Shown piece after piece: positions 2,740-19,661 of a stretch of 20,224 nt of DNA. The position numbers and the translations under genes were made by a program. The notes beneath the pieces are model-generated. The model was not told where the DNA came from and made no database searches. It saw only the letters and a program-made list of their open reading frames with translations. How positions within the stretch are numbered: the first letter of the stretch is position 1; every line of letters starts with the position of its first letter. Source of the DNA: a virus (lineage: Duplodnaviria > Heunggongvirae > Uroviricota > Caudoviricetes); the IMG/VR virus record IMGVR_UViG_2579778929_000009; one strand, given 5' to 3'.

Positions 2740-4596
2740 TTATGATGATGCTGGTGCATTTATCTCCAGCACCAGACTTTCTATCTCAACGCCATACGCT
2801 GCATTTTTGGTAATATCCGTCAGCGTCAGCGCATTCAGCCCCAGTGTCAGACTGTCTTTTATGACCTGGAATGCCGGGCCAGCCACTCCATTCAGTTTCG
2901 GAGTAACCGTGGCACTGCCGGCGGTGAACACCAGCTCCAGCGTCTGCCAGTCGTTACTGTAATTCCCGAACTCGCCCAACTTTGTGTTTCCTGCTTTCCT
3001 GTGATGCATCAGATTCAGTTTGCCGTCTGTGGTCTGGGTGAAGAACGACATCAGGAACGGGTTACCAGTCCCGGTCATCGCCACGACGTCAGGTAACGCT
3101 ACATCGGTATACAGATAAATTCCCAGACCGAACTGGTTGTTGGTCAGTGCGCCTGACAGTCGAAACTTACAGCTCAGTCTGCCACCCCGTGTCAGCAGGG
3201 AGACTGCGTCATCCACCGGATGCATCAGGGACCAGGTTTTATTGCTCTGCTTGGTAACCTTAAACACACCATCTTCCAGCGCAACACTGCCGCCGGTGAT
3301 GGTCCAGCCCTGCGCAGCAGCCTCTCCGGCTGTCGGCAGCAGGGAGACTGTACGAACGGATGTGTCACCATCAGACGGCCCCGATGGCGTGTCGCCGCCG
3401 GGCGAGGGTTTAATCTCCGGTGCGGTACCGCTGATGAAGGCGCTGGTTCGACCAACTGCGTTCAGAATAGCGGTTGCCAGGCGATCCGAAATAATGCCCC
3501 TGCGCGCCCATGAACTGAAATGTGTCGGACGATTTGACGATACCCAATTACCATTACTACGGGATTGCGCGCCGTAATAACCTGCATCAGCAATATCCGG
3601 GTCTTCTGCCGGTAAGTTGGTGGGCGTGTTGTTGCCGTTACCGTCGGTCATGAACGGCACAAAGAAAACGTTGTCGCTCTCCCTGTTTTTGTACGCGCCG
3701 TAGACGGAGTCATACTGTGTGCCGTATGTGTTTTTCCAGTAATACGTCGTGTCGCCACAAATCCACGGTACAACTGCAGCACTGCCGCCATGGCACTGCG
3801 CCGCCAGCCCGGCAAGGTCAGCACGGAACTGCTGTACCATTGCAAGAAATGCTGCTGGCTGCTGGGCGTAACTGGCATTCGTCATATCGAATTCCCCCTG
3901 CATCCAGCATATCGCCAGCAAAACGTTTTTCGGGTTTTTCTGCAATGCTGCCTTCGTGCGGAAAAGCAGATCCTGATATAATGGTTTACCCACACCCCAG
4001 CGTGCCGAATCCTGGCTGGCCCCCGTGTCCGCACTGAATGTCCCCTCCGCGCCCTGGGTGAATGCCGAACCACCACGACAGCATGGTACCAGCAGGATCC
4101 CCGCATTATTAGGGATATACGGAAGCAGTTTTTTGGCAATATGTAAGCCCTGTCCGACACAGCCGTACTGCCCTTTGCTCAGGTCAGCCCGGGGATGGTT
4201 AATCGTACTCATATCCTGAACATCATGCAGACAATGGTCAGCAGGAATGATGTCGTTAAATACGCATACTTCACCACCGGGAGTCACTGTGTTACGACGG
4301 GCCAGTTGCTTAATGCGCGGATGGGGCGCATCGTATGAATCCGGAAGCGGAAGCCCTTCACCGTAAGCCATGGCATTGGACTGCCCGGCCAGTACGATGA
4401 CGTAGTACCACTCCGGCTCAGTTGCACCACTGACGACCACATCACCTTCTGCTGCAATCGCCTGCATCAGGGTATAAGGGGTTATGGCCACCGGACTACC
4501 AAACGGCTGCCAGCCCTCTTTCAGTTTATGTGTCAGCTTTTCCGCAAGATCTGACGGCGACGCCGCCCTGACAACATCATAGTGTTTAAATGCCAT
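2740..4596 (-). CDS. Prophage 9-O-acetyl-sialic-acid esterase, NanS-p-like (SGNH/SASA hydrolase)
   Basis: 618 aa with a GQSNA motif near the N-terminal domain (SASA/DUF303-type esterase signature) and a GGGAGGA Shine-Dalgarno. It lies between the tRNA cluster and the holin, which is where nanS-p homologs sit downstream of stxAB in Stx phages. Confidence 0.8.
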   Translation of the reverse strand: MAFKHYDVVRAASPSDLAEKLTHKLKEGWQPFGSPVAITPYTLMQAIAAEGDVVVSGATEPEWYYVIVLAGQSNAMAYGEGLPLPDSYDAPHPRIKQLARRNTVTPGGEVCVFNDIIPADHCLHDVQDMSTINHPRADLSKGQYGCVGQGLHIAKKLLPYIPNNAGILLVPCCRGGSAFTQGAEGTFSADTGASQDSARWGVGKPLYQDLLFRTKAALQKNPKNVLLAICWMQGEFDMTNASYAQQPAAFLAMVQQFRADLAGLAAQCHGGSAAVVPWICGDTTYYWKNTYGTQYDSVYGAYKNRESDNVFFVPFMTDGNGNNTPTNLPAEDPDIADAGYYGAQSRSNGNWVSSNRPTHFSSWARRGIISDRLATAILNAVGRTSAFISGTAPEIKPSPGGDTPSGPSDGDTSVRTVSLLPTAGEAAAQGWTITGGSVALEDGVFKVTKQSNKTWSLMHPVDDAVSLLTRGGRLSCKFRLSGALTNNQFGLGIYLYTDVALPDVVAMTGTGNPFLMSFFTQTTDGKLNLMHHRKAGNTKLGEFGNYSNDWQTLELVFTAGSATVTPKLNGVAGPAFQVIKDSLTLGLNALTLTDITKNAAYGVEIESLVLEINAPASS

Positions 4597-4818: not shown

Positions 4819-4823
4819 GCCCA

Positions 4824-5060
4824 CAAGAAAACCCCTCCGGAGAGGGGCTAAAGCCGCGTATCTGTATCATCATGCACATGGTGCCGGGTGCCTCCCGGTG
4901 AGTTCAGCCCGGTGCCACTAAACCCGCGTCATTCTCGTTTTGATAATCAGAGATTATACCGTCACCAGTCGCCCCTCCGCTCAGGGGGATTCACCATGCG
5001 AAATTTTTTTAACAAATGCCCAGTCTGACAGGCAACTGTCAACTTACTGAATTGTGAGCA
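4824..5060. repeat. Paralogous non-coding module A (~235 bp), hairpin-rich
   Basis: Shares conserved blocks with module B: cccctccggagaggggct, catggtgccgggtgcctcccggtga, gcccctccgcNcagggggattcaccatgc, ttttaacaaa and ctgaattgtgag. Contains three perfect short palindromic hairpins. Confidence 0.7.
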
Positions 5061-5122: not shown

Positions 5123-5310
5123 TGGAAGGATAGCGGTCATGTGATGCCGGTTTCCCGGTAACTCAGCACCGGTATCTGAGTCAACGTTTTCTCTACTGGG
5201 TCATTTCCGATACGCCCTGCCTGCTGACAGGCTTTCATCACATCTGAAAATATAGCACCCTGACTGATACTGTAGTACCTAAGGTTCCAGAAACTGTGAT
5301 GTATCCGGCA

Positions 5311-5530
5311 CAGAAAAGCCCCTCCGGAGAGGGGCTGGAGAGTGGCGCTATGTGCCATTGCATGGTGCCGGGTGCCTCCCGGTGAATTCAGTACCAGCAC
5401 CTGAATCCGCGATTATCCCATATACCTACTCGCTGATTGCCCCTCCGCACAGGGGGATTCACCATGCCAGTTTCTTTTAACAAACTCCCCGCAAACCAGA
5501 CAACAGTCAACCGCCTGAATTGTGAGACAT
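5311..5530. repeat. Paralogous non-coding module B (~220 bp), hairpin-rich
   Basis: Same conserved blocks as module A in the same order. The hairpin cccctc-cgga-gagggg at 5319-5334 is followed by T-rich sequence on the minus strand. Confidence 0.7.
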
Positions 5531-5571: not shown

Positions 5572-5648
5572 TGGCGCGTTGTACTGGATTCGAACCAGTG
5601 ACCGATTGCTTAGAAGGCAATTGCTCTGTCCGGCTGAGCTAACAACGC
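5572..5648 (-). tRNA. argO: tRNA-Arg (anticodon UCU), argO-like
   Basis: Manual cloverleaf: acceptor GCGTTGT/ACAACGC, D-arm AGCTCAGCCGGACAGAGC, anticodon loop CUUCUAA, T-arm GGTTCGAATCC, discriminator G. CCA is encoded. Confidence 0.8.
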
Positions 5649-5661
5649 AGGATACAGATAA

Positions 5662-5738
5662 TGGACCGCCTTCGGGGACCCGAACTCCGCGCAACCAGCT
5701 TCGAAGGCTGGCGCTCTTTCCTGATGAGCTAATGGCGG
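5662..5738 (-). tRNA. argN: tRNA-Arg (anticodon UCG), argN-like; fold has some mismatches
   Basis: Manual fold: D-stem GCTC/GAGC, anticodon stem CCAGC/GCTGG with loop CUUCGAA, acceptor 6 of 7 pairs, T-stem 4 of 5 pairs. Its position between the two other tRNAs matches the ileZ-argN-argO order of Stx phages. Confidence 0.55.
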
Positions 5739-5745
5739 TATGTGA

Positions 5746-5821
5746 TGGTGGCCCTTGCTGGATTTGAACCAGCGACCTGGCGATTATGAGTCGCTCGCTC
5801 TCACCACTGAGCTAAAGGGCC
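5746..5821 (-). tRNA. ileZ: tRNA-Ile2/Met-type (anticodon CAU), ileZ-like
   Basis: GGCCCTTTAGCTCAGTGGTGAGAGCGAGCGACTCATAATCGCCAGGTCGCTGGTTCAAATCCAGCAAGGGCCACCA. Acceptor GGCCCTT/AAGGGCC, anticodon loop CUCAUAA; closely resembles E. coli ileX as I remember it. Confidence 0.85.
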
Positions 5822-5870: not shown

Positions 5871-6920
5871 TCAAACGATTAAATCCTGAACTTCCCTGAC
5901 TGTCTGCTCAAAACGTCCGGTCTCCAGCTCAACACCAATCGCACGACGCCCCAGTGCCATCGCCGCTTTTACCGTTGAACCCGACCCCATGAAAAAATCC
6001 GCAACCAGATCACCAGGACGGCTACTTGCGCTGATTATCTGCTGCAGCATTTCTGCCGGTTTTTCGCACGGATGTTTCCCGGGATAGAACTGCACCGGTT
6101 TATGCGTCCACACATCGGTATACGGCACCTGCACCGTCACGCCAAAATACCGCCGCAGATGTTTATATTCACTCAGCAGCTCCGCATACTGCCGGTTCAG
6201 TGAGGTATACGTATCCACCAGCTGGTGGTGGAGCTTTTCCAGTTCACCACGCCGATGCTTCTCTTCTGCCACCCGGGCAAACAGCGCCTGTAATTTCAGA
6301 TAATCGCTTTCATTCGGTAGCTGCCACTGACTGGCACTGAACCAGTGCGACACCATGTTTTTCTTTCCTGTGGCATCTGCAATCTGTTTTGCCGTTATCC
6401 CCAAGGCCGCGCGCGCATCACGAAAGTAAGAAATCAGCGGGGCCATCACATGCTGTTTCAGTGCACTGCCCTTCGCCGCATACCCGGCATCTTTCGGACG
6501 ATACGGCCCCTGATAATGTTCCGCGAACAGAATGCGCTCTGTGGCGGGGAAATACGCCCGCAGGCTTTCCTTGTTGCACCCGTTCCAGCGTCCGGACGGC
6601 TTCGCCCAGATAATATGGTTCAGCACACTGAAGCGTTCACGCATCATGATTTCGATATCAGATGCCAGGCGATGACCACAGAACAGGTAAAGACTTCCGG
6701 CAGGTTTCAGCACCCGCCAGAACTGCGCCAGACACTGGTCCAGCCATTTCAGGTAATCATCGTCGCCCTTCCACTGGTTATCCCAGCCCTCAGGCTTCAC
6801 TTTAAAGTACGGCGGGTCCGTGACTATCAGGTCAACAGAATTTTCGGGTAACGACCGGATAAATTCCAGGCAGTCGGCGTTGATTAACTCACAACTGGAT
6901 ATTTTTACAGTATTAAGCAT
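5871..6920 (-). CDS. DNA methyltransferase (amino-MTase, N6-adenine or N4-cytosine; DPPY motif precedes the AdoMet-binding motif)
   Basis: 349 aa with DLIVTDPPYF (motif IV) near the N-terminus and FFMGSGST (motif I, AdoMet binding) near the C-terminus. Confidence 0.85.
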   Translation of the reverse strand: MLNTVKISSCELINADCLEFIRSLPENSVDLIVTDPPYFKVKPEGWDNQWKGDDDYLKWLDQCLAQFWRVLKPAGSLYLFCGHRLASDIEIMMRERFSVLNHIIWAKPSGRWNGCNKESLRAYFPATERILFAEHYQGPYRPKDAGYAAKGSALKQHVMAPLISYFRDARAALGITAKQIADATGKKNMVSHWFSASQWQLPNESDYLKLQALFARVAEEKHRRGELEKLHHQLVDTYTSLNRQYAELLSEYKHLRRYFGVTVQVPYTDVWTHKPVQFYPGKHPCEKPAEMLQQIISASSRPGDLVADFFMGSGSTVKAAMALGRRAIGVELETGRFEQTVREVQDLIV

Positions 6921-10032: not shown

Positions 10033-10083
10033 CTGTTTTCTCTGCTGGCGCAGCAGGTGCCAGTTGTTCAGGCTGACGTATGA

Positions 10084-10111
10084 AGTATAAATAAACTGGC
10101 TCCAGTGTAAA
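10084..10111 (-). promoter_or_regulatory. Candidate sigma70 promoter on the minus strand for the nin/Q operon, at the edge of the AT-rich island
   Basis: On the minus strand: TTTACA, 16 nt spacer, TATACT, about 45 nt upstream of the 10032 start. Confidence 0.4.
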
Positions 10112-10299
10112 GCCCCACCTTAATGGAATAAAAACCAAACAACAGATTGCTGGGATAAAAATACAACGCTTATTATTAAAAGCGGTTAGATAAATTAAAT
10201 TTTAATGTTATGCAAATCTGCCAGATTAGCATAATATTTCATTTGAAAACCGCTGAAATAACAATCTTATCGGGATTAATCATATTAAGGTGAGTAAAT

Positions 10300-10386
10300 A
10301 TGGAAAACAACAAATCTGCACATTACGCTCCTTTTTTATCTGTAATACTTTTTGTATTTTGTTGTGTATGGGCGGTATTTTTATAA
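10300..10386 (+). CDS. Candidate 28 aa hydrophobic peptide (MENNKSAHYAPFLSVILFVFCCVWAVFL)
   Basis: An AAGGTGAG Shine-Dalgarno lies 5 nt upstream of the ATG. The product is a single predicted transmembrane helix. It is convergent with the protease gene and separated from it by a strong bidirectional terminator. It is too short for the six-frame track. Confidence 0.35.
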   Translation: MENNKSAHYAPFLSVILFVFCCVWAVFL

Positions 10387-10403
10387 AACACACCCACAAA
10401 TAA

Positions 10404-10436
10404 ATCAAACCCGCTACAGCGGGTTTGATTTATATA
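10404..10436. terminator. Strong bidirectional rho-independent terminator at the 3' end of the ATPase-protease operon
   Basis: atcaaacccgc - taca - gcgggtttgat: an 11 bp stem with T/A-rich flanks on both sides, 5 bp after the protease stop. Confidence 0.7.
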
Positions 10437-10440
10437 GTTG

Positions 10441-12705
10441 TTATACGGAAACTGGCACACGAGCAGGCAATGGATAGTGAGCCCAGTTATTAGCATTTAA
10501 AGCTCTTACGCCATCAGCATAAACTTGTGTTTTTCCATCTAATGATTTTAAAGTTACTACAATAGTTACAGGTAAAGGCTCCATTAAGGCCGGTTCATTC
10601 GCTCTCAACGTTGTTTTAGCTTGAAGAGCCCAGTTACCCGAAGTAATTCCTTTATTAAATGCCTTGCGATGAATTTTTACTGGTGACCACTTTCCACCAT
10701 GCTCAATTTGAGCTCTCTCATATCCAGATTGACCGTTTTCTCCTTCCATAGGTACTTTTCCTTTTATAGTATTATTCTCAATTAAGCCAAAACTTAGCTC
10801 TACGTTCGCGCGAACATATTCACTGCCGGCATTAGGGTTCAGTGGTGGTGCATATGCAGCAGTAATTACAATCTCACCTTTAAATTTTCCATTTTGAATA
10901 AGTGCCGATGGTATGGGATAGTTTTCCTTTCTCCACCTCACCCCAGGAACCAAGAATGTTTGGAAAATCAGAGTAAACCTATCATCACTATCATATAAGG
11001 TCTCAATAACCTCATTAGGAATTCCCGCTCCCAAATAGCGTCTTTCACTTGGCGAGTAATCAGGAGAAGATAATTGAGCGGAATGAATTAATAATGCTTT
11101 AATCAATGATGGTGAAACATTAAAGTCTGAATTAGTGGCTATTCTCTGCCATGTATGCGCAGCTAAACTTGCCACAATTGGAGCAGCAAAACTAGTACCA
11201 AAATTAGAGCAAAGCCTATTATCTGGCCCTACGACCTTTAAACTGCTTGCTCCTACATTCCAAGGTCTATGAACCCCACCGCCAGCATGGATTATATCTG
11301 GCTTTGGAGTAAATACAGGCCCAGGGCCACGACGAGTATATGGTGTCGGTGTTCCAATTTCACTTAAAGCATCATTAGCTTCCATATGAGAAACTGAACC
11401 AACTGTTAGTGCTCGGACTGACTCTCCAGGAGAGGAAATTAAATCAGCACCTCCAAGCGGATCAGGATTTGGCCATGTACGTATAGGTTCATCTACATAA
11501 TTACCTGCAGCAACTACAAACAAAATACCAAATTTATCGCTGAGCCGATCTAACTCCATCGCAAAATCACTAAACATCTGCTCATTACATGGTCCGCCTC
11601 CCAAAGATAAATTCCAGACTTTTATATCTGGTCTTTTATTTACAGCATCTGCTAGCCTCAGAATTAAATCTGATATATAAGATCCATTTTCATCTAAAGC
11701 ACAAACATCATGGATTTTAGATTTTGTATCAGGAATCCATGGATGATTGTCATTTAAAAAATGAGCGCCTGATATCAATGAAGACACCATAGTCCCATGT
11801 TCATAACTCGTATCAGGAGGAATTACGTATGTTTCCCTACTCACTACCCAAGGAGTAATTGTTGCCGCGATGGGGCTTACCCCAGTGTCAAATACAGCAA
11901 CAATGGGTAATTCTTCTGATGGTACGGGAAAGCTATTTGTTTCAATGCCAACAGAATCACTTACACTAACCGGGAATGCTGAATATTTTGGTTCTGGAAT
12001 TAACGTTCTTATACCCGGGTAATCAATGAGAATGTCTAATATATATCTATCATTTGGGGATAAATCCATTATCCTTAATAAGGGAAGACCACATTTTGGT
12101 CTAATCTCATCATATTTAACTCCGTGTTGTTCTAATATAGAAATAACGTTTTCATAGTTGTTGTAAGTTGCATCTTCACCTGTGTACTCAAATAGTCGTA
12201 CAAGGATGTTTGATGATTCAAACAAACCATCAGTGCCTCCTGGAACCTTCCTATTCTCATCCCAAGGTTCAATGCGCTCAATCGCGCTTAGATTAGCCAA
12301 AATCGCTTTAATATTCCGATGTAAAATGACTGACTCTAATACGTCAAAACAGCCGGCATGAGCAGCAACCAACATTTCATCTATTTTGGCATGACCGGCA
12401 TTTTGCAATCCAGCCTCTTGAGCAATTTTGTTCGGCCTATGCGTTTTGGCTATTCCCTGGTCTCTTAATTTGAAAACCAAAGTACCCAAGCTTCCAGGGT
12501 ACTCTGAAAGTTTGGATTCTAAATAATGTTTACTGGTTGTTAAATTTCTTACTAGCCCTTGTCTATATTCGGCTGTTACATCAACCAATACCTTTGCCCC
12601 ACCGCCAGCGTTTACTATTGCACCCAAGTCACTACTGGAAAAAGGGATTCTTAACATTGGGTTTGTAACTTTTGCGTTACTAAACTGTGTACCCCTTCTG
12701 CTCAT
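10441..12705 (-). CDS. S8 subtilisin-like serine protease (IetS-like) with a ~260 aa N-terminal and ~200 aa C-terminal extension
   Basis: 754 aa. Catalytic signature in canonical order: Asp (VAVFDTGV), His (YEHGTMVSS), oxyanion Asn (VVAAGNY), Ser (GTSFAAPIVAS). An AGGAG Shine-Dalgarno precedes the start; the start overlaps the ATPase gene by 26 nt. Codon usage is AT-rich. Confidence 0.8.
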   Translation of the reverse strand: MSRRGTQFSNAKVTNPMLRIPFSSSDLGAIVNAGGGAKVLVDVTAEYRQGLVRNLTTSKHYLESKLSEYPGSLGTLVFKLRDQGIAKTHRPNKIAQEAGLQNAGHAKIDEMLVAAHAGCFDVLESVILHRNIKAILANLSAIERIEPWDENRKVPGGTDGLFESSNILVRLFEYTGEDATYNNYENVISILEQHGVKYDEIRPKCGLPLLRIMDLSPNDRYILDILIDYPGIRTLIPEPKYSAFPVSVSDSVGIETNSFPVPSEELPIVAVFDTGVSPIAATITPWVVSRETYVIPPDTSYEHGTMVSSLISGAHFLNDNHPWIPDTKSKIHDVCALDENGSYISDLILRLADAVNKRPDIKVWNLSLGGGPCNEQMFSDFAMELDRLSDKFGILFVVAAGNYVDEPIRTWPNPDPLGGADLISSPGESVRALTVGSVSHMEANDALSEIGTPTPYTRRGPGPVFTPKPDIIHAGGGVHRPWNVGASSLKVVGPDNRLCSNFGTSFAAPIVASLAAHTWQRIATNSDFNVSPSLIKALLIHSAQLSSPDYSPSERRYLGAGIPNEVIETLYDSDDRFTLIFQTFLVPGVRWRKENYPIPSALIQNGKFKGEIVITAAYAPPLNPNAGSEYVRANVELSFGLIENNTIKGKVPMEGENGQSGYERAQIEHGGKWSPVKIHRKAFNKGITSGNWALQAKTTLRANEPALMEPLPVTIVVTLKSLDGKTQVYADGVRALNANNWAHYPLPARVPVSV

Positions 12706-13834
12706 ATGCTCCTGACTCCTTCAGAATGTTTGAAATTACTCTTGATGTAAGTTTGTACAAATTAGCAAGAACTCTGATAGAAAATAATTTTTTATCTTTA
12801 GAACGTAACCAACGAATTTCATCTTCGTAAGTGCTTAAATTTACACCTTCCATAAGCGATTGCGCAAGATACAAACGCCTATACAATTTATGGTGATTTA
12901 TCACACTTGCACCTTCAATAACTGCATCCCTACGTGCATCCAAGCTCACCTGTTCAATTATTGCTCCGGATAATCCCTCCGATTTTCTTGATAAATCACT
13001 TAAATCTAGATCGCTACATATCATATTCTTTAAACGATTTTTCCAAATTAACTCTCTCTGATGTATGTCAGGCAGAGGCATTGGAATTCTGAAGCTAAAT
13101 CGCCTCCAGATTGCAGGATCCAGAAGTTGCTCATGGTTAGTTGAGGCAATAATTACCGTATCCTCTGATGCCGCATCCATATTCTGCAATAGTGAAATGA
13201 CAACTCGCTGAAGCTCACCTATATCTCTCTCATTACCTCTTGCTCCAGCTAAAGCATCAAATTCGTCTAAAAAAAGCACTGATGGCCTCTGCATTACATA
13301 ATCGAAAACCTGTCTAAGATTTTTGCTGGTTTGTCCCAATAAACTACTAATCAAAGTATCGCAACGCACTGTAAGAAGTGGAAAATCTAAGCGGGTAGCG
13401 ATGTACTTAGATAACATAGTCTTACCTGTTCCTGGCTTTCCATACACGAGCATACGACTCGGCAATGCTGCATCAGCTTTAACAAACTCATCATAACGTT
13501 GAACATTAGTGATAAACTCTTCAACACGGGTACTGATTGCTGCAGGCAGAAAAATCTCTGAACTGTCTAATTTAGGATAACTGACATCAACAGTGTTGAG
13601 TCGACTATCAATATCTACCGGTAATGAGCCCAGAGATATCCCACCTCCAGCCCTTTGAGCTCCTGCCAACGCCTGGGGAGCTCTAAGCAACCTTTCTCTT
13701 ATCATTCTGGCTTGCTTGACCTCCCCTTTTTGTTCGAGCTTATCTGCCAGCAACCCAGCATAATTACTAGCCATCGAAGCATTTGCCTTTGTTGCACCTT
13801 CAATGATTTTTAACACTTCTGATAAATAATCCAT
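12680..13834 (-). CDS. AAA+ ATPase (IetA-like)
   Basis: 384 aa. Walker A GKPGTGKT, Walker B VLFLDEFD, sensor 1 IIASTNH, arginine-finger region PAIWRRF. A GGGAG Shine-Dalgarno precedes the start. First gene of a two-gene operon with the S8 protease. Confidence 0.8.
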   Translation of the reverse strand: MDYLSEVLKIIEGATKANASMASNYAGLLADKLEQKGEVKQARMIRERLLRAPQALAGAQRAGGGISLGSLPVDIDSRLNTVDVSYPKLDSSEIFLPAAISTRVEEFITNVQRYDEFVKADAALPSRMLVYGKPGTGKTMLSKYIATRLDFPLLTVRCDTLISSLLGQTSKNLRQVFDYVMQRPSVLFLDEFDALAGARGNERDIGELQRVVISLLQNMDAASEDTVIIASTNHEQLLDPAIWRRFSFRIPMPLPDIHQRELIWKNRLKNMICSDLDLSDLSRKSEGLSGAIIEQVSLDARRDAVIEGASVINHHKLYRRLYLAQSLMEGVNLSTYEDEIRWLRSKDKKLFSIRVLANLYKLTSRVISNILKESGAYEQKGYTV

Positions 13835-14027
13835 TCAACACTCCCACAACAAAAAGCCACAGCAATCAAAAAATGAGCACACAGAATCAAAATACTCTCT
13901 AATCGTAACGCATTTTGAGATTTTTGATACGTTTTTTTGGGATTATGTAACGCCAAATGGTCATTTTGTGTCAGAAAAATAAATCTTAGTACCGAGAATA
14001 TGTAGCTTCCATCCTTCATCGTTCTAT

Positions 14028-14459
14028 TCATCCCTGATCTCCAAGCCTCTCTCGAAAACCATTCTGATAAAACGCCAGCACACGCTGCATAACTTCGCTC
14101 TTCCGGCACTCGCGACAGATTATGTTCAGACGCCTGTCGTAGCGGCGTATTTCTCCGTCTGGTAATGACCAGATAAGGTCCGGATCAACCACAGATGGTT
14201 TCTTCACCTTTGCCCTGGATAGTTTTTTGCGGGCATTTTGCCAGTCCTTACGAGCCTGTTCAGACGGGAATAACCCGTAACCAGAGTTGTATACATCGCC
14301 ACTGGCAACCAGCTCTCTGGCGAGAACGCTCATCAGATATCTTGTCGCACCTGTCTTGGCTTCCAGTTGCCGTAACGTCTCGCGCCCACTCCGGCGTACT
14401 AGCTCAACAACCTGCCCTTTAATTTTTTCCCGCTCTTCTTGTGTAAATACTTTTGCCAT
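14028..14459 (-). CDS. Hypothetical protein (143 aa from the internal Met with a GGAGG Shine-Dalgarno)
   Basis: ORF with a good ribosome-binding site at the Met beginning MAKVFTQEEREKIKG; the six-frame ORF extends 5 codons further upstream. Basic C-terminus containing CRECRK. No family recognised. Confidence 0.45.
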   Translation of the reverse strand: MAKVFTQEEREKIKGQVVELVRRSGRETLRQLEAKTGATRYLMSVLARELVASGDVYNSGYGLFPSEQARKDWQNARKKLSRAKVKKPSVVDPDLIWSLPDGEIRRYDRRLNIICRECRKSEVMQRVLAFYQNGFRERLGDQG

Positions 14460-19608: not shown

Positions 19609-19661
19609 TTTCTGGTGACGTTTGGCGGTATCAGTTTTACTCCGTGACTGCTCTGCCGCCC
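19609..19661 (+). ncRNA. dicF: DicF small regulatory RNA
   Basis: The 53 nt TTTCTGGTGACGTTTGGCGGTATCAGTTTTACTCCGTGACTGCTCTGCCGCCC matches the DicF sequence as I recall it exactly, is followed by TTTTT, and sits just upstream of dicB as in Qin. Confidence 0.85.

Follow-up and report, generated by a model that had tools for sequence, protein, structure and literature searches.

IetAS is a two-gene module that pairs an AAA+ ATPase, IetA, with a subtilisin-like serine protease of the S8 family, IetS. IetA/IetS of Agrobacterium pTiC58 is said to have been described as a toxin–antitoxin system by Yamamoto et al. in 2009, and IetAS was reportedly recognized as an anti-phage system by Gao et al. in 2020. 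Here we describe an ietAS cassette in a 20,224-nucleotide (nt) stretch of tailed-phage DNA (Caudoviricetes; IMG/VR record IMGVR_UViG_2579778929_000009), the whole of which is referred to below as the window. Judged from its sequence, the pair in the window is an intact IetAS (IteA/IteS) system, already known and annotated. The only part of it that might repay follow-up is the ietA leader, where an array of phased boxes accompanies a predicted helix-turn-helix (HTH) at the C-terminus of IetA.

In published work, IetAS was first described as a toxin–antitoxin pair in which the toxin is a serine protease and the antitoxin an ATPase (PMC13069673). A system of the same family, sgiAT of Salmonella Genomic Island 1 (SGI1), is a functional toxin–antitoxin system (PMC5006074), and a B. 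cereus homologue shows abortive-infection behaviour and is toxic once the SPbeta gene yosG is expressed (10.1101/2022.08.27.505566). In ietHAS (Liu-DS4), a variant with an SNF2-type helicase, defence requires protease activity, and constructs with mutated ietA were unobtainable (PMC13069673). In E. coli, ietAS is typically prophage-borne, and the ECOR52 ietAS acts in synergy with Zorya II (Wu et al., 10.1101/2022.08.21.504612). The forward primer of the ECOR52 ietAS clone of Wu et al., FN0414, matches the window exactly at 14005–14027, and the reverse primer of that clone matches the cassette junction in E. coli phage vB_EcoS-683R6 (683R6); therefore, the type of cassette carried by the window has already been tested at the bench.

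The sequence-only reading of this DNA had placed two ORFs (open reading frames) with a 26-nt overlap in the window, and both are found on the minus strand where it had located them: ietA at 12680–13834, encoding the AAA+ ATPase of 384 amino acids (aa), and ietS at 10441–12705, encoding the S8 subtilisin-like protease of 754 aa. The end of ietA overlaps the start of ietS at 12680–12705, as judged from the ORF coordinates, which implies translational coupling of the two genes. Overlaps of 26–56 nt are present in Klebsiella, Morganella, Providencia, Aeromonas, Comamonas and Acidovorax loci (26 nt in the first three), and an overlapping gene pair is conserved across phyla. The genes constitute one operon with ietA upstream, ietS co-oriented and a single terminator downstream; a terminator between ietA and ietS was looked for and none was found. 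The predicted Shine-Dalgarno sites are likewise present, with GGGAG 7 nt ahead of the ietA ATG, and AAGGAG and AGGAG ahead of the ietS ATG. The intrinsic terminator hairpin (10400–10433, minus strand) starts 8 nt past the stop codon and has a folding free energy of -26 kcal/mol (z -6.8 vs shuffles); the hairpin that had been noticed after the operon is real and strong, but its stem, which is perfect and followed by a T-rich tail after a 4-nt TGTA loop, is 15 bp long and not 11 bp.

Assignment to the ietAS family, which had been proposed from the motifs, holds at full length for both proteins. The PADLOC IetA model PDLC02196 matches residues 1–374 over profile positions 1–371 of 374 (E 9e-143), and the IetS model PDLC02197 matches residues 12–753 over profile positions 3–748 of 749 (E 6e-300). 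Both NCBIfam equivalogs are also exceeded: IetA reaches 526.6 bits (cut-off 510) with NF042959 ('anti-phage ATPase IteA'), and IetS reaches 1039.4 bits (cut-off 900) with NF042956 ('S8 family anti-phage peptidase IteS'). Pfam returns only the generic AAA and Peptidase_S8 families on the two proteins, the latter at IetS residues 268–544. The exact protein sequences of the window are held by NCBI under the names IteA and IteS, and the accessions of these proteins are not mentioned in the searchable literature. Of 5,426 complete E. coli genomes, 78 carry the 3.4-kb coding block at 99% identity or more, always on the chromosome and in single copy, and nearly all of these copies are annotated as iteA/iteS (RefSeq, anti-phage). 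Full-length homologues (748–770 aa) are distributed across Enterobacterales, Pseudomonas, Aeromonas and Burkholderiales, and distant relatives of IetA extend to Actinomycetota, Bacillota, Bacteroidota, Planctomycetota and Bathyarchaeia.

IetA is a classical-clade AAA+ ATPase. The motifs that had been quoted for the two proteins each occur once, those of IetA being GKPGTGKT at residue 132, LFLDEFD at 187, IASTNH at 229 and PAIWRRF at 240. Conservation was assessed with 48 homologues of IetA and 56 of IetS, which share 50–86% identity with the window proteins, and Walker A Lys138, Walker B Asp190 and Glu191, sensor-1 Asn233, and Arg244 and Arg245 are invariant in the IetA set. The AlphaFold2 (AF2) model of IetA (predicted local distance difference test [pLDDT] score 78) consists of a three-helix bundle (residues 4–62), a disordered linker, a single AAA+ module and a helical C-terminal part, and its best Foldseek matches are p97 D2, FtsH, PAN and Vps4. 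A sequence search of the PDB gave no solved IetA, the matches being limited to p97, Cdc48 and similar proteins.

The C-terminal part of IetA includes a predicted HTH, FSIRVLANLYKLTSRVISNILKE, at residues 336–372 (window 12719–12829, minus strand), which is based on the AF2 model and sub-threshold Pfam matches. In the model, these residues form three short helices with pLDDT >90. Among close IetA homologues, the sub-threshold matches are to MRP-L20 in 12 of 16 and to HTH_23 in 5 of 16, and among distant homologues to HTH_23 in 17 of 29, with HTH_11, HTH_3 and HTH_IclR in further members; the matches to this C-terminus are mostly to HTH families. HTH-like C-terminal segments of distant members are exemplified by SQIALILGVSKSYISDLL and TARILGVSRQAIYAYL. 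Overall, IetA proteins read as ending in a predicted HTH.

The ietA leader contains seven in-phase 21-nt units (13848–13994, minus strand), which become apparent when the leader is stacked at 21 nt. Each unit opens with a box of the form YGNWWCR followed by variable A/T-rich sequence, the boxes in the window being CGGTACT, TGACACA, CGTTACA, CGTATCA, CGTTACG, TGATTCT and TGATTGC. The window has a single occurrence of a three-box pattern in its 20 kb, and 100 shuffles have none. The array was compared among the window leader and the leaders of loci L004, L007 and L009–L095. Across 25 same-clade leaders, repeats of a 7-mer at a spacing of 21 nt number 95, where 6.2 would be expected (z=23), and those at a spacing of 42 nt number 67, where 4.6 would be expected; control regions of the same loci give 5–10. 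The periodicity is equally strong, at 20–21 nt, in 63 distant leaders whose IetA proteins are 34–47% identical (z=27 and z=15). These autocorrelation tests are independent of a position weight matrix of the leader, which is partly circular, its phase having been picked by a regular expression, and which was not used as evidence. The cores in distant leaders, including those of archaeal contigs and of pRi1724, are lineage-specific yet related (CGTTTCA, TCGTTCC, GAACGA, TGTTCAC and GCGTWAC). Family-wide, ietA leaders carry 4–7 boxes in a 20–21 bp phase directly upstream of the gene, overlapping the likely promoter, from E. coli to Bathyarchaeia.

Two earlier candidates in the leader, an imperfect dyad AACGTATC-N16-GTTACGAT and a palindromic heptamer TGAWTCA, were dropped in favour of the in-phase direct boxes after more leaders had been stacked. 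The units have diverged too far from one another for Tandem Repeats Finder, which reports no repeat in the leader.

Relatives of IetA at 36% identity are found on contigs L067, L081 and L085, which are labelled Candidatus Bathycorpusculum (Bathyarchaeia). The leaders on L067 and L081 have an in-phase AAATCGTTCC box array with a 20-nt period, and that on L085 has a 21-nt periodicity, suggesting that the whole module moved between domains together with its control region.

Two adjacent boxes of the window leader make up a candidate sigma-70 promoter (13902–13930, minus strand), with a -35 element GTATCA (13930–13925), a 17-nt spacer and a -10 element TACGAT (13907–13902). Homologous leaders carry better versions, GTAACA-17-TACAAT and GAAACA-17-TACAAT, and no stretch of the leader other than the promoter block is conserved among the E. 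coli, Klebsiella and Morganella cassettes.

The array and the HTH of IetA may be new. Neither is described in the searchable literature, which did not include the founding 2009 paper or Gao 2020, and in that literature ietA is never paired with operator, direct repeat or iteron, nor meaningfully with helix-turn-helix.

IetS is predicted to be a cytoplasmic protease with a complete catalytic set. Its motifs, again in one copy each, are DTG at residue 273, HGT at 303, AAGN at 399 and GTSFAAP at 503, and Asp273, His303, Asn402 and Ser505 are invariant among the 56 homologues. The protein comprises an N-terminal extension (residues 1–255), the catalytic domain (about 265–550) and a C-terminal beta domain (570–740). 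A secreted subtilase with a signal peptide had been named as an example of a finding that would overturn the defence reading; no signal peptide or transmembrane segment was found in IetS, in which the highest 19-residue Kyte–Doolittle mean is 1.48 and the N-terminus is hydrophilic (mean of -0.23 over residues 1–30). The AF2 model of IetS (pLDDT 84.7; predicted template modelling score 0.88) has two beta-alpha-beta-beta-alpha-beta units ahead of the subtilase domain, and its best Foldseek match is ProN-Tk-SP (3afg, unprocessed pro-Tk-SP), with KP-43 and PCSK9 also matched; these three subtilases retain a propeptide, have a C-terminal beta domain, or both. In the model, IetS resembles a pro-subtilase whose propeptide-like N-terminal region has been retained. 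A PDB sequence search found no solved IetS and matched generic subtilases only, at residues 413–543. Within the N-terminal extension, the sequence AKxHRP at residues 86–91 (window about 12433–12450, minus strand) has Ala86, Lys87, His89, Arg90 and Pro91 invariant in the 56 homologues, and is located in a loop of lower AF2 confidence.

Taken as a whole, the cassette is very probably an intact IetAS moron, in which IetA would restrain the protease, infection would free IetS and IetA would regulate its own expression; the restraint and trigger steps are based on inference plus the literature on homologues. In the uninfected lysogen, a ring oligomer of IetA would keep IetS harmless. A phage product would disturb this restraint, and the freed protease would damage the cell before the phage cycle is completed, resulting in abortive infection. 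The C-terminal HTH of IetA would bind the 21-bp-phased boxes over its own promoter, and this binding would keep the toxic pair at a low level of expression, in the manner of type II antitoxins.

The presence of a C-terminal HTH together with phased boxes over a likely promoter suggests autoregulation by a DNA-binding AAA+ oligomer, and the simplest reading that the sequences suggest is autorepression by oligomeric IetA with its sites on one face of the helix. In its full form, this reading is tentative, and we put its chances a little short of even: IetA would be a DNA-binding AAA+ protein whose HTH reads CGTT(N)C/GAAACG-type boxes, arranged as 4–7 direct repeats that double as the -35 and -10 elements, with the 20–21-bp period corresponding to two helical turns and the array conserved in E. 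coli, Actinomycetota, Bacillota, Bacteroidota and Bathyarchaeia. As a speculation, six 21-bp boxes amount to about 126 bp, which is close to the circumference of an AAA+ hexamer, and the leader may wrap an IetA ring. If IetA does bind the boxes, tight autorepression would be provided, and toxin control might be tied to the state of the DNA, which could bear on the sensing step.

Several observations weigh against these readings. The mechanism of anti-phage activity by IetAS, including the control of IetS by IetA, is unknown according to PMC13069673, and the ECOR52 ietAS alone gives limited protection only (10.1101/2022.08.21.504612). At the position of pore loop 1, IetA has an invariant SLLG without the usual aromatic-hydrophobic-Gly, so that substrate threading by IetA is uncertain. 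Every HTH match is under the Pfam curated cut-off. The candidate promoter fits the consensus at 7 of 12 positions only, which is why a generic promoter scan called no site upstream of ietA. For IetS, the propeptide-like reading depends on the order of secondary structures and one full-length Foldseek alignment, and Pfam scans of residues 1–263 and 550–754 gave nothing even at E=10.

Other explanations of the pair differ in what IetA does to IetS and in what the pair is for. The sequence-only reading had called the pair an ATPase-activated protease, which is unsupported; in the literature, IetA is an antitoxin that restrains IetS (PMC13069673; PMC5006074). An activation model would have IetA sense infection and use ATP to unfold or strip an inhibitory propeptide-like N-terminus of IetS, switching the protease on. 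The two beta-alpha-beta-beta-alpha-beta units before the catalytic domain, the best match to an unprocessed pro-subtilase, the place of IetA within the unfoldase clade of AAA+ proteins and the invariant AKxHRP, in a loop of the IetS N-terminus modelled with low confidence, are all consistent with such a role, but we consider it distinctly unlikely: the unobtainable ietA mutants of ietHAS and the neutralization of the protease toxin by IetA homologues point to restraint rather than activation, and the absence of an aromatic residue from the IetA pore loop also speaks against this role.

If the pair were instead an addiction module, post-segregational killing would stabilize the prophage and anti-phage activity would be incidental. 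The founding pTiC58 IetAS and the SGI1 sgiAT were described as stability toxin–antitoxin systems (PMC13069673; PMC5006074), ietAS is always on mobile elements (prophages, plasmids, islands and Tn7-like elements), and the limited protection by the ECOR52 cassette alone fits here as well. Nevertheless, defence and abortive infection have been shown for homologues, and sgiAT under its own promoter causes no post-segregational killing (PMC5006074); addiction as the primary function is therefore rather unlikely, and the addiction and defence roles are in any case mutually compatible. A subtilase of the ordinary secreted or housekeeping kind, or a protease for phage morphogenesis or lysis, with an unrelated ATPase beside it, would account for the generic Peptidase_S8 and AAA matches that are all that Pfam gives, but can be given practically no credence, being refuted by several results: IetS has neither signal peptide nor membrane segment; the pair is conserved and overlapping across phyla and matches the specific IetA and IetS equivalogs; and it is absent from close phages and foreign to the prophage in composition. 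An IetAS moron in which IetA would restrain IetS is the explanation retained below.

The host element is a lambdoid, Rac/Qin-like E. coli prophage, in which transcription runs from high to low window coordinates. The ietAS cassette, consisting of the leader, ietA, ietS, the terminator and an AT-rich tail, occupies 10048–14064 (minus strand), as delimited by alignment limits and GC content. In related phages without the cassette, alignment ends at 14045–14064 on the side of the DUF977 gene and at 10076–10091 on the other flank, and in genomes with the cassette in another downstream context, alignment begins at about 10048; because of these limits, the insert is taken to be about 4.0 kb, roughly 10048–14064. 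Its leader measures 190 bp and its tail 350 bp, with the two genes and the terminator in between. The block is more AT-rich than its surroundings, as had been remarked, with a GC content of 0.392 against 0.52 and 0.48 in the flanks.

The cassette is located between DUF977, at the end of the replication module, and the DUF968/RusA/Q module. Upstream of it, in order, are the immunity region (with a DicF RNA nearby), a YdaT-like gene, an O-like HTH gene, a DnaC-like gene (ydaV), DUF1627 and DUF977; downstream of ietS, in order, are a gene for a 92-aa protein, DUF968, RusA, antiterminator Q, a DNA methyltransferase, three tRNAs, the DUF6645 gene, holin and lysozyme. The same slot is filled by the cassette in phage 683R6, whose nin module differs, and in Klebsiella prophages, and the nin-side flank of the window prophage differs from the ECOR52 and 683R6 context. 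Elsewhere, ietAS is inserted between holin and lysozyme in a Providencia prophage (L014, 872–4259), adjoins the prophage integrase in Morganella, lies in an island with Fic/DUF4172, NERD and AAA_15/AAA_21 genes in P. aeruginosa (L010, 1473–9959), stands beside TniQ/TniB in Comamonas, and adjoins a Shedu nuclease gene between IS21 copies on an Acidovorax plasmid (L008, 2839–7423). Because the cassette is absent from flank-sharing phages and occupies the same or other slots elsewhere, the proposal of a prophage moron between the replication and nin/Q modules is sound. The features of a moron are seen in its foreign composition, its own terminator and its presence or absence among related phages; its own promoter is a conserved candidate.

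The AT-rich non-coding tail (10048–10399, minus strand; 350 bp, GC about 0.34) lies 3' of the terminator. It accompanies the cassette in E. coli and is not conserved in the Klebsiella cassette. A promoter-like site in the tail, TTTACA-16-TATACT at 10111–10084 (minus strand), could restart transcription into the nin genes. A small hairpin is present at 10098–10114. The tail contains no ORF of note, small ORFs such as that at 10323–10496 being unconvincing, and an Rfam scan detected no RNA family inside the cassette.

Several other elements are present in the window. Positions 1–926 are the 3' part of an IS3-family insertion sequence (IS) element, with an ALIL frameshift pseudoknot at 1–72 and an orfB-type transposase ORF at 1–888. 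In an otherwise 99.9% identical prophage of strain 102651, the IS stretch is replaced by other prophage DNA that starts with a lysis protein gene (39–506 of that locus); the window prophage therefore appears to be interrupted by the IS. A 618-aa DUF6645 protein is encoded at 2740–4596 (minus strand), between the tRNA/STnc100 region and holin. It has no PADLOC match, and its gene occupies what we take to be the late-gene slot of toxin genes in Stx phages. The interval from the tRNA cluster to the DUF6645 gene holds two copies of the small RNA STnc100, at 4819–5028 and 5306–5496 (minus strand; 161 and 136 bits). The three tRNA genes (Arg, Arg and Ile; 5575–5821, minus strand) follow the methyltransferase gene downstream of Q. 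The methyltransferase itself, of 349 aa (5871–6920, minus strand), matches PADLOC MTase_II (E 5e-166), and no partner nuclease was found near its gene. A DicF antisense RNA (19610–19661, plus strand; 76.7 bits) lies beside homologues of dicB and ydfD and identifies this end as an immunity-side region of the Qin/Rac type.

For annotation, and for that alone, the window is useful in adding a further prophage-borne example of a defence system that is already catalogued. The HTH on the ATPase and the phased boxes over the promoter, found family-wide, provide a cheaply testable handle on the IetAS mechanism, which bears on how the toxic protease stays low and controlled, and possibly on the sensing of infection.

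Compared with known systems, the window pair shows no difference of substance from IetAS as catalogued by PADLOC and DefenseFinder ('IetAS/Gao_Iet'), with the same two proteins in the same overlapping order, A then S. In IetA/IetS of pTiC58 and in SgiA/SgiT, too, an AAA+ antitoxin precedes an S8 protease toxin about 750 aa in length, but what was described for those systems is stabilization of a plasmid or island, not defence. The related pRi1724 pair shares 39% identity over IetA residues 4–307 and 28% over IetS residues 260–736; an HTH at the end of IetA and a 21-nt periodicity of the leader are seen there as well, but it belongs to a distant branch in which the N-terminal extension of IetS is unalignable and the genes do not overlap. 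IetA-like and IetS-like components are shared with ietHAS, but the window pair has no SNF2-family helicase gene (ietH) beside it: its neighbours are DUF977 and the 92-aa hypothetical gene, and the neighbouring ORFs have no relevant PADLOC match.

Among AAA+ remodellers of the meiotic and classical clades, Vps4, katanin, spastin, p97 D2, FtsH and PAN share with IetA the three-helix bundle, the linker, the single AAA+ module, the RRF arginine pair of the second region of homology and the C-terminal helices. Unlike those remodellers, IetA has SLLG at pore loop 1, a C-terminal HTH and a subtilase partner instead of a compartmental protease. Type II antitoxins repress their own operons, and DnaA and the NtrC-type enhancer-binding proteins are AAA+ proteins that bind arrays of sites by means of a DNA-binding domain at the C-terminus. 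IetA resembles these proteins in being antitoxin-like, in its predicted HTH and in the repeated boxes over its own promoter, whereas it differs from DnaA and the NtrC types in its AAA+ clade and in the strict 20–21 bp phase of the boxes, which are putative sites.

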